Part shown: one piece after another, positions 18,601 through 21,600 of the stretch
Position numbering within the stretch: position 1 is the stretch's first letter
Layout of the letters: every line of letters starts with the position of its first letter
Position numbers: made by a program
NCBI RefSeq assembly: GCF_003334335.1
Contig: NZ_QOWQ01000023.1
Length of the DNA stretch: 64,000 nt
Direction: 5' to 3' (one strand)
Source of the DNA: Escherichia coli
GTDB lineage: Bacteria; Pseudomonadota; Gammaproteobacteria; Enterobacterales; Enterobacteriaceae

Positions 18601-21600
18601 TCAGGCTATTCAAAGTGGTACTTGCAACGAATGTTCCGCACGGTGACGCATCAGACGCTTGGCGATTACATTCGCCAACGCCGCCTGTTACTGGCCGCCG
18701 TTGAGTTGCGCACCACCGAGCGTCCGATTTTTGATATCGCAATGGACCTGGGTTATGTCTCGCAGCAGACCTTCTCCCGCGTTTTCCGTCGGCAGTTTGA
18801 TCGCACTCCCAGCGATTATCGCCACCGCCTGTAATTTTATTGCCCGCGCGTTAACTCCCGCGCGGGTAATTGCTCCATCCATTGCATAAACACCTGCGGC
18901 GGCATCGCCTTCGCAAAGAACCATCCCTGGCAATAGCGCACGCCGCGTTTGCGCAGCCAGTTAACCTGCTCCTCAGTTTCGACGCCTTCAGCGATCGTTT
19001 TTAACCCCAGGCTGTGCGCCAGCTCGATGATGTGTTCCGCAATCAAATGACTGGTTTTGTGGGTGGTCAGCGTTTCAACAAACGATTTGTCGATTTTCAA
19101 AATATCGACATTCAATGATTTAAGGTTATGCAAGTTAGAGTAGCCAATACCAAAATCATCAATTGCCACTTCGTAACCTGCCTGGCGGAAAGCCAGAATA
19201 ATCGGCGTCATTTTGTCAACATCAAGAAATGCATGCTCAGTCACTTCAAATTTAATTTGCTGCGGACGCACCGCGTATTGCTCTGTTTTCTGATTGATTC
19301 GCGCTATCAACCGTGACGTATGAAAATCGGAGGCCGACAGGTTAATAGAAACATAGCGATCTGCATGTGTTGCCAGGTAATCGCCCAGATCGCGGAAGAC
19401 ATTATCAATAACATAATCAGTTATCTGTTCTATCATCCCCTCCTTTTCTGCCAGCGGAATAAACTCTGCCGGATTCATTATTTGCCCCTGCTCACCAGGC
19501 CAACGTAACAACGCTTCAGCGCCGATACATTTTTCTGTTTTGATATCGATTATTGGCTGGTAATAAAGACAAAGTTGATGTTTTTCGAGGGCGCGTTGCA
19601 ATTTACGTTTGGGAGATAAATAGTTTTGTCGAATACGTAGCCAGAGTAATAGCAGAACAAGACTCCCCAAAATACCGGCGGGCAACGCAAAAATAAGATG
19701 ATTATAAAAATGGGTTATAAGACGTTGATATGAAGTCGCAACAATGGCTGCAATTGGGCGTTTTGTCGAATAAACTGTCGCATATAAATAGCCATTTCTT
19801 TGTACGGTTAAATCCTTCAAATGAATCAGCGGAGAAAACGTTGCTGCCGAGGCCTCTTTGCTTAACGAGAAAAAGGTTTTCGTCACCGTATCATACACAC
19901 CCCATTGCAATGTCGGGTCATCAGACATCACTTCACTCCAGAAGAGAGGGTTGATAACCGCCACATAATTTCCCCGCTGCATATAGGTCATTTTATAGCC
20001 AGAGAAAAAAGGCGTATCGCGGTAATAATAGATAGAAACGTTAGGTTCACGCTTATAATCGGCCGGTGCAATCGTATAGCCGTTTACAGGCGCTATCAGC
20101 GATGAGCATAAAAAATGGTTATCACGGGCATAGATCAATTCATTAATATAAAGATAGCCACGAATAATATTCAACATTCGCTTTTGATGGGCTGGAGTGC
20201 AAACTTGCCCCTGATAGCGTTCAGCTGCATCGCTCACTAAATCTGCCTGGCGAATGACCAGCTCGGATTTATCCAGTGCCAGTTGAGCAAAGGTTCGGAG
20301 CTGATTATTCACTTCTGATTTTGCCCAAAGGAAGGCAATCCATAGCGAAAGAATGATGGGAAAGAGAACTAAAAAGATAATGCCCGGCAACGCCAGTAAT
20401 TGGTGTCGTGCACGATGACTCATTGCTATCAATTTCCTGCCTGTTTATACCCGGCCATTGCAAGGTGAAAACCCTGGGTACCGACGTCTTTAGATAAATC
20501 TTACGGTATAAATAGCACTTTTGCCTGATTTGAAATTGATACCTTTCTAATCGTCACCTGGATGAAAATAATTCATTGATATTCAAAATTAATTTCCTAC
20601 AGGAATGCAGAGGCGGCGGGAAGATATGCCCTTAATGCCACTGAAAAACCACATAATCTGTACAGCAATAAAAGTCACGGCCTAATATGGCTAACAAACA
20701 ATCAATTGTGATATAGTTCACAAAATTAATGAAACAAACAGAGTGTTTCATTTTTGTGTTCTGCAAGCCCCGCGATAGCCAGAGTGTACCACGCCTCCCG
20801 TGAACAACGCCGCGCTGTCCAGGGCATCGGCTCTTTTCAGAGGAATTGTTTGATGGCTACCCTCACCACTGGCGTGGTTCTTCTTCGCTGGCAACTTCTT
20901 AGTGCCGTAATGATGTTTCTGGCCAGCACACTCAACATCCGTTTTCGTCGGTCTGATTATGTCGGGCTTGCGGTGATCAGCAGCGGTCTGGGCGTTGTTT
21001 CCGCCTGTTGGTTCGCAATGGGGTTGCTTGGCATCACAATGGCGGACATCACCGCTATCTGGCACAACATCGAGTCGGTGATGATAGAAGAGATGAATCA
21101 GACACCGCCACAATGGCCAATGATTTTGACCTGATACGTAGAAGCCTCCATAACGGAGGCTTCTTTTTTATGGCTGGCAGATGCTTTAATCATCCACCTT
21201 AAAACAATATAACCTATTGTTTTAATGACAAATCAGAACGGAATGTCATCATCAAAGTCCATCGGCGGCTCGTTAGACGGCGCTGCCGGAGCGGACTGCT
21301 GCGGGCGAGACTGCGCGCCGCCGCTGAACTGATTGCCACCCTGCGGCTGCTGAGGCTGACCCCAACCGCCCTGCGGCTGACCACCACCGATATTGCCACC
21401 TGCCGGAGCGCCACCACCCTGACGACCACCCAGCATCTGCATGGTGCCGCCAACGTTCACCACGACTTCTGTGGTGTAGCGATCCTGACCGGATTGATCG
21501 GTCCATTTACGGGTACGCAGCTGACCTTCGATATAAACCTGAGAACCTTTACGCAGATATTCGCTCGCCACTTCTGCCAGTTTGCCGAACAGCACAACGC

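Follow-up and report, generated by a model that had tools for sequence, protein, structure and literature searches.

The genes pdeC and yjcB of Escherichia coli diverge from a non-coding spacer that holds a short inverted repeat, and the locus raises the question of which gene this repeat serves and whether it does so as RNA or as DNA. It was addressed here in a stretch of 64,000 nucleotides (nt) from contig NZ_QOWQ01000023.1 (RefSeq assembly GCF_003334335.1), called the window below, whose plus strand is the K-12 minus strand (window position = 4295894 minus the K-12 coordinate). An initial annotation had described the repeat as an orphan hairpin just upstream of the yjcB coding region. All the parts named there were found, namely the arms ATGAAACA (20729-20736) and TGTTTCAT (20744-20751), the 7-nt spacer between them (20737-20743) and the TTTT that follows (20752-20755); the perfect repeat extends one base pair (bp) further, with 9-bp arms AATGAAACA and TGTTTCATT on either side of the same spacer. 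It is no orphan, since it sits inside the 5' untranslated region (UTR) of yjcB, at +4 to +28 of the transcript, and it is less close to the gene than was thought, as it ends 101 nt before ATG 20853. The evidence set out below firmly establishes the hairpin as a conserved cis element of the yjcB leader, placed directly after a promoter that is occluded by CRP and targeted by MarA and SoxS. The coordinates of the features are collected in Table 1.

Table 1. Features of the pdeC-yjcB-ssb locus in window coordinates; positions relative to +1 refer to the yjcB transcription start site.
Feature	Position	Strand	Details
yjcB transcription start site	20725	+	Published primary site, K-12 4275169(-); 5' UTR of 128 nt
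Extended -10 element TGaTATAGT	20709-20717	+	From sequence; invariant across genera
Weak -35-like element CTAACA	20691-20696	+	15-nt spacer; alternative TGGCTA at 20688-20693 with 18-nt spacer
CRP palindrome TGTGATATAGTTCACA (TGTGA-TATAGT-TCACA)	20707-20722	both	Perfect; centred at -10.5; its 6-bp spacer is the -10 hexamer
Marbox (MarA/SoxS/Rob)	20662-20681	+	-63 to -44; forward relative to yjcB; 20-bp extent presumed from the marbox consensus
Left arm of the repeat, AATGAAACA	20728-20736	+	+4 to +12 of the yjcB mRNA
Loop/spacer AACAGAG	20737-20743	+	Free to change among Escherichia species (alignments)
Right arm of the repeat, TGTTTCATT	20744-20752	+	+20 to +28 of the yjcB mRNA; GTTTC invariant in 76/76 leaders
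T-run TTTTT, then GTGTT	20751-20755	+	Escherichia only
Second 5'-UTR helix	20767-20825	+	GCCC..GATAGC (20767-20779) pairs with GCTGTC..GGGC (20814-20825)
yjcB Shine-Dalgarno sequence GAGGA	20840-20844	+	GAGG invariant in alignment
yjcB coding sequence	20853-21134	+	93 amino acids (aa); PF15940; small inner-membrane protein
G+C-rich bidirectional terminator of convergent yjcB and ssb	21140-21164	both	Terminator scan; 6 G-C pairs
pdeC/yjcB spacer	20424-20852		429 bp
Predicted pdeC sigma-70 promoter	20444-20471	-	-35 TTTTCA (20471-20466), 16-nt spacer, -10 TATAAA (20449-20444)
pdeC start codon ATG	20423-20421	-	RefSeq K-12; first base 20423 is the left boundary of the spacer
pdeC coding sequence	18837-20423	-	RefSeq K-12 annotation

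The position of the repeat within the yjcB transcript follows from a published primary transcription start site, which was assigned to b4060 at K-12 4275169(-) (PMC12987492) and agrees with an extended -10 element whose hexamer ends 8 nt upstream. The combination CTAACA-15-TATAGT had been listed as the yjcB promoter (PMC3946193). The same -10 hexamer forms the centre of a perfect CRP palindrome, and the TG of the left CRP half-site doubles as that of the extended -10 element, one sequence with two functions. TGTGA-N6-TCACA occurs exactly once in the window against 0.04 expected, and the 16-mer is invariant or nearly so in all of 76 non-redundant Enterobacteriaceae yjcB leaders. In the literature, yjcB is a top CRP prediction made by PhyloScan, it belongs to a 14-gene crp-knockout iModulon, and deletion of crp raises its expression as seen by both RNA sequencing and quantitative PCR (PMC13339887). 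The CRP site thus overlaps the core promoter of a gene with CRP-dependent expression, and because the -10 hexamer lies inside the site, CRP bound with cyclic AMP (cAMP) over the -10 element should occlude the promoter. Both the place of the site and the rise of expression upon crp deletion are traits of CRP-occluded promoters, of which cyaA P2 is an example. The likeness, however, concerns the element beside the hairpin rather than the hairpin itself, the centres of the two being 25.5 bp apart and the two being conserved as one block.

Further upstream lies the marbox. A MarA site determined by chromatin immunoprecipitation sequencing and attributed to yjcB<>yjcC, gcaataaaagtcacg, corresponds to window positions 20665-20679 (-60 to -46), and yjcB was also named as a target of SoxS by the related ChIP-exo method (PMC5684230). 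A GCA..AAAA motif is found at the same distance in Salmonella and Citrobacter.

The hairpin shares the conservation of this promoter. In a protein search, YjcB (PF15940) was confined to Enterobacteriaceae, and a genome scan gave 80 loci from Escherichia, Salmonella, Citrobacter, Enterobacter, Klebsiella, Raoultella, Kosakonia, Phytobacter, Leclercia, Lelliottia, Trabulsiella, Yokenella and others. The upstream neighbour varies by genus, with a pdeC-like gene in many and other genes elsewhere. Every locus nonetheless carries a block made of GTGATA(T)AGTTCACA, 20-24 nt and GTTTC, and the marbox, the CRP/-10 site and the leader palindrome, all within 90 bp, are conserved together in at least 15 genera. 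Within the species, a 901-bp query around the hairpin, which is 100% identical to MG1655, was found in 5426 of 5426 complete E. coli genomes. A 71-bp piece covering promoter and hairpin is at least 95% identical in 5422 of them, and a piece of the same size from the middle of the spacer matches in 3652. Both arms are identical in E. coli, in E. albertii and in three other Escherichia lineages, even as most positions of the 7-nt loop have changed. Judging from these comparisons, the palindrome belongs to yjcB and is under purifying selection.

A few natural variants were encountered among the E. coli genomes. In strain AF34, an A->T change at 20750 disrupts one pair of the stem and makes the T-run longer; A->C at 20728 occurs in both THO-015 and TUM13064; and OkiPb01679 has lost 4 bp between the -35-like hexamer and the CRP/-10 box.

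The repeat is also more than would be expected in so short a region. Markov simulations gave about 2.1 perfect repeats of at least 9 bp with loops of 3-10 nt per 64 kb, that is about 0.014 per 429-bp spacer, and a search for the exact pattern finds it a single time in the window, where 0.03 would be expected even with 3 mismatches tolerated. Imperfect outer arms, CACAAAA (20719-20725) and TTTTGTG (20752-20758), extend it on both sides. As RNA the hairpin is predicted to fold with -6.9 kcal/mol (z = -1.7 against shuffled sequences), a value that is weak taken alone. Covariance models from Rfam, run over 17500-22500 at E <= 10, gave no match within the spacer, and only sraL/RyjA (17828-17968) passed its threshold.

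The suggestion made in the initial annotation that the hairpin may act in cis on yjcB is borne out by its place at +4 to +28 of the transcript. We favour, with less than even confidence, the view that in E. coli the palindrome is a 5'-terminal stem-loop acting on the yjcB mRNA. The gene is transcribed from the extended -10 promoter, which cAMP-CRP would occlude, and the marbox would permit activation by MarA or SoxS. Transcription from 20725 turns the repeat into a 9-bp stem with a 7-nt loop, 3 nt from the 5' end of the mRNA, which may shield stress-induced yjcB mRNA from decay that depends on the 5' end. In Escherichia, the adjoining U-run may also slow RNA polymerase or stop it in part. The place of the repeat relative to promoter and start site, its fold, the conservation of its arms, the dependence of yjcB on CRP and the binding of MarA are shown; we infer that the palindrome is active as RNA and not as DNA, and that it affects mRNA stability.

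Several observations fit such a stem-loop. The stem starts at 20728 and leaves 3 unpaired nt, within the roughly 0-4 nt from the 5' end that this mode of action calls for, and it persists when the whole 156-nt leader is folded. In 71 of 76 leaders a 5'-proximal hairpin was predicted with the invariant GUUUC as its 3' arm; this hairpin has a folding free energy of -5 kcal/mol or lower in 45 and beats shuffled sequences at p <= 0.05 in 41. Clades differ in the spacing of the outer arms, 9 or 10 nt, a variation that a hairpin can tolerate, and a tally from the alignment found nearly all left-arm transitions to be wobble-compatible. Moreover, in Kosakonia and Phytobacter, where flanks resembling the operator of the repressor KdgR have been lost, the stem is lengthened by G-C pairs and reaches -10 to -12.5 kcal/mol. 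A parallel is provided by stabilising stem-loops of the ompA type, which likewise lie a few nt from the 5' end of a monocistronic mRNA and are conserved among enterics. The yjcB hairpin differs from these in being much weaker (-6.9 kcal/mol, A-U rich), in its 3 unpaired nt, in the lack of covariation and in a central mismatch in many orthologues.

Other features of the alignment weigh against an RNA element. Across the 76 sequences the five pairs of the core lack any compensatory change and the right arm never varies. RNAalifold found no double change in the stem; where double changes do occur, in Kosakonia and Phytobacter, they are confined to its top or its base. An uncompensated U.U or C.U mismatch interrupts the middle of the stem in 32 of 76 leaders (C. 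freundii group, Enterobacter, Lelliottia, Leclercia), and the fold is weaker than -4 kcal/mol in 21. At the pair beside the core, A-T, G-C, A.C and G.T occur at about the frequencies of independent variation. Finally, the right flank ...CATT is conserved past the paired region, and together with the lack of covariation this pattern points to recognition of a sequence rather than to pairing. The three unpaired 5' nt are themselves borderline for 5'-end protection as known from the ompA leader.

These points make a DNA operator a close rival of the RNA stem-loop. On this account, which is possible rather than likely, the repeat at +4 to +28 would bind a dimeric or tetrameric repressor that blocks RNA polymerase as it leaves the CRP-covered promoter. 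A site just downstream of +1 is typical of repressors, and conservation of sequence without covariation, an invariant right arm and a kept CATT flank are all what a protein-binding site would show. A more specific form of the account deserves about the same caution: in most Enterobacteriaceae the operator would be an inner GAAACA-n-TGTTTC of the type bound by the IclR-family regulators KdgR and PlaR, and in Escherichia it would rely on the outer arms or on another protein.

The resemblance to KdgR operators is close at the level of half-sites. Compared with the Dickeya/enterobacterial consensus AAATGAAACAnTGTTTCATTT, as quoted in PMC5559549, the E. coli arms fit the half-sites AAATGAAACA (left, 9/10) and TGTTTCATTT (right, 10/10), hence 19/20 positions with a 7-nt spacer, and the next best KdgR match in the 64 kb has 6 mismatches. 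Outside Escherichia, most leaders have a second GAAAC fixed 3 nt from GTTTC (for example AACAGAAACAaTGTTTCATTC), while the position of the outer arm varies by 1-2 nt. Relative to the consensus, the inner boxes carry 3-5 mismatches, compared with 6-8 for the runner-up in each 6-kb locus. Real E. coli operators scored by the same measure have 1 and 3 (kduI), 3 (kdgT) and 5 (kdgK) mismatches, all other sites in these loci of 7-12 kb having at least 7. The core of the PlaR box described in the literature, TGAAAC-N3-GTT(T)CA, is alike. In view of these matches, a KdgR/PlaR-type operator is probably present around +10 to +30 of yjcB in Salmonella, Citrobacter, Enterobacter, Leclercia and some Raoultella.

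In E. coli the same operator would have to work in a different geometry. With the canonical register (1-nt spacer, GAAAC-N3-GTTTC) the site has 5 mismatches, all in the left half, and the good half-sites appear to be 6 bp too distant for an IclR-type dimer. The iModulon obtained upon kdgR deletion is made of kdgT, kdgK, kduD, kduI, asr and hyi; yjcB is absent from it and is found in the crp-knockout iModulon instead. Likewise, yjcB, yjcC and pdeC are not mentioned in the text, or in the supplement searched, of the study that mapped PlaR by genomic SELEX (systematic evolution of ligands by exponential enrichment). In addition, the outer left arm is conserved everywhere even though a canonical box would not need it. 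On half-site spacing and the kdgR-deletion data, canonical KdgR binding in E. coli was rejected. In short, the site shares with the operators of kdgT, kdgK, kduID and eda both 10-nt half-sites (AATGAAACA / TGTTTCATTT) and a promoter-proximal place, and the yjcB boxes of Salmonella, Citrobacter, Enterobacter, Leclercia and Raoultella match as well as kdgT and kduI do, whereas the E. coli half-sites are 7 nt apart instead of 1, yjcB shows no response to kdgR deletion in the iModulon data, and it is not known to be linked to hexuronate metabolism. As the only candidate DNA-binding protein fails in E. coli on both counts, the stem-loop reading gains.

The history of the site can nevertheless be traced. 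The palindrome almost certainly descends from a KdgR/PlaR-type operator that used the same right arm and still overlaps it in most other genera, the inner half-site having been lost in E. coli and the other Escherichia. The partners of the right arm are roughly complementary by clade: no inner box is present where the outer stem is perfect (Escherichia, Kosakonia), and a mismatch interrupts the outer stem in the clades with the best inner box (C. freundii group, Enterobacter). A composite, so far unannotated arrangement is conceivable, with a KdgR/PlaR-type operator overlapping an RNA hairpin that has the same right arm and the stress-induced membrane protein YjcB belonging, across Enterobacteriaceae, to a hexuronate regulon responsive to 2-keto-3-deoxygluconate (KDG); in Escherichia the left half-site would have moved 6 bp outward, and control would have passed to the RNA form or to another protein. 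We regard this composite as doubtful.

Another outcome of the same history would be a relic, that is a decayed KdgR-type operator without function in E. coli, kept by promoter-proximal constraint such as that on the initially transcribed sequence. The lost inner half-site of the other genera, the indifference of yjcB to kdgR deletion and the single E. coli isolates with arm mutations (A->C at 20728; A->T at 20750 in AF34) would all agree with decay. Yet the Escherichia arms are fixed while the 7-nt loop diverged, Escherichia has a better outer palindrome (9 perfect bp) than the genera that keep the inner box, and the block is kept at 95% identity or more in 5422 of 5426 E. coli genomes, which together make a relic improbable.

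Other regulators were compared by inspection, and the half-site or spacing rules of CytR, Cra, TyrR, ArgR, OmpR, PhoP and LysR-type proteins (T-N11-A) do not fit. The arms of the palindrome are one base off a CytR octamer, AATGCAAC, and they contain the Cra core TGAAAC/GTTTCA. As at CytR-controlled promoters, a CRP site adjoins the palindrome; the central TGCAA core of CytR is however unmatched, and none of the 76 leaders has GTTGCATT as its right arm. The half-sites of Cra adjoin each other, unlike the yjcB arms.

The hairpin and its T-run lie on the sense strand of a 5' leader, as an intrinsic terminator would, and the initial annotation had accordingly considered the end of a small transcript or an attenuator of yjcB. 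The first is not supported: the sole promoter feeding this strand is that of yjcB itself, 3 nt upstream, and the stem was not called by the terminator scan. On the matter of promoters, the consensus scan misses the yjcB promoter for its poor -35, and its silence on others is therefore weak evidence. An attenuator of the classical kind is unlikely, as neither a conserved leader peptide nor a conserved pairing of the anti-terminator kind or with the ribosome-binding region was found. What could be imagined instead is a weak intrinsic terminator in which the stem and UUUUUGUGUU stop some transcripts near +31 to +34, attenuating yjcB or freeing an RNA of about 30 nt. The Escherichia stem is indeed directly followed by 4-5 U (TTTTTGTG), a leader is a suitable place for attenuation, and at pH 4.4 ribosome occupancy rises more than the mRNA (log2 7.7 versus 5.9), which makes control at the level of the leader possible. 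Against this stand a stem with 2 G-C pairs out of 9 (at least 3 are required by the scan), A-U pairs at its base and a stability of -6.9 kcal/mol; the scan that finds the yjcB/ssb terminator, with 6 G-C pairs, does not report it. The T-run is moreover not conserved, Salmonella, Citrobacter, Enterobacter, Klebsiella and others having CATTCA, CATTG or CACAT after the conserved arms. In the accessible part of the Term-seq tables of Adams et al. 2021 (PMC7815308), no 3' end is given at K-12 42751xx, a weak negative since RNAs of about 30 nt are lost and yjcB is poorly expressed there. Early termination as the role of the stem is therefore improbable; a weak, Escherichia-specific form of it could still occur.

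Pairing of the left arm with the ribosome-binding and start region of yjcB was rejected as a general mechanism, because its duplex energies beat those of shuffled sequences in only 12 of 66 leaders (mean z = -0.5). It is limited to the group of Salmonella and C. amalonaticus, where a sequence at the start codon, ..TGTTTCATG, is similar to the right arm.

The ATG at 20729 could in principle open a small leader open reading frame for a 24-aa peptide, MKQTECFIFVFCKPRDSQSVPRLP. An NTG triplet is found at the same position in most genera and the ATG is 4 nt from the 5' end of the mRNA, yet no Shine-Dalgarno sequence precedes it, and RefSeq annotates no such gene in K-12. The frame has 24 codons in K-12, 4 in E. 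albertii and 10 in C. amalonaticus and shrinks to ATG-TAA in Citrobacter and Enterobacter. With its length not conserved, a leader peptide is essentially refuted, and we attach almost no probability to it. The stem-loop acting on the yjcB mRNA remains the preferred reading for E. coli.

The remainder of the leader holds one further recurring structure, a long-range helix downstream of the 5' hairpin. Among the 31 leaders with a long UTR, RNAalifold found that 5 of its pairs keep pairing after changes on both sides, and the helix is shared by Escherichia, Salmonella, Citrobacter, Klebsiella/Raoultella and Leclercia and absent from the short leaders of Enterobacter. A Dcm site, CCAGG (20819-20823), lies inside this helix, and in a dcm mutant yjcB is one of the five genes with the largest increase (PMC11741368). 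As the fold of the whole 156-nt leader is not more stable than that of shuffled sequences (z = -0.35), there is no evidence for a large riboswitch-like leader.

YjcB is an uncharacterised small inner-membrane protein, and its gene is among the most strongly induced at pH 4.4, with log2 changes of 5.92 for RNA and 7.73 for ribosome footprints. Footprints thus rise about 3.5-fold more than mRNA, which hints at translational control through the leader. The gene is induced by several other stresses as well, and under antibiotic and oxidative stress it is again among the most strongly induced (PMC12987492 among the sources). Earlier publications already describe the CRP site and the marbox, but seem not to cover the palindrome, its place in the leader or its KdgR-type ancestry. 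The map of marbox, CRP/-10 site and palindrome offers a basis for dissecting how yjcB is silenced and switched on, and CRP placed around the -10 element is a clean natural example of promoter occlusion. The KdgR link, if true, would tie the sensing of sugar acids to the stress protein YjcB. No general principle is changed by this: its use lies in annotating a single promoter, and it does not reveal a system of a new kind.

As for the surroundings, the RefSeq K-12 annotation places here uvrA, ssb, yjcB (4274760-4275041, minus strand), pdeC (4275471-4277057, plus strand), soxS, soxR and ryjA, and the window is K-12-like, with the gene order soxR-soxS-pdeC / yjcB-ssb-uvrA. The spacer had been given as 420 bp long; it measures 429 bp when pdeC starts at the RefSeq ATG at 20423 and not at the in-frame upstream TTG at 20432. 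It had also been called AT-rich, which is so to a moderate and not a strong degree (41.5% G+C against 50.8% in the window). The hexamers of the predicted pdeC (yjcC) promoter were located in the sequence as listed in PMC3946193, where H-NS binding is also marked for this spacer. Its middle part (20540-20610) is hypervariable within E. coli, with a megablast match in only 3652 of 5426 genomes, and in strain PK8277 (NZ_CP080133.1) an IS1A is inserted inside the 901-bp pdeC-yjcB region, splitting the match into two pieces. A 9.5-kb contig of a Flavobacterium paronense assembly (NZ_JAUFQN010000013.1) is 100% identical to the E. coli yjcB region, which is almost certainly a contamination of the public assembly.

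On the other side of pdeC, the small RNA sraL/RyjA (Rfam RF01408, 153 bits) was found at 17828-17968, convergent with soxR as in the K-12 annotation. Downstream of yjcB, the yjcB-ssb junction has been described as an integration hotspot for an 18-kb defence island (PMC11728103). In the accessible part of the Term-seq data, the 3' end of ssb is placed at K-12 4274757/8 (PMC7815308), that is window 21137/21136, 3-4 nt beyond the stem of the shared terminator. Between the ssb stop codon and this terminator, the ssb 3' UTR contains an A+T-rich palindrome at 21199-21225 with 11-bp arms, TTAAAACAATA-TAACC-TATTGTTTTAA.

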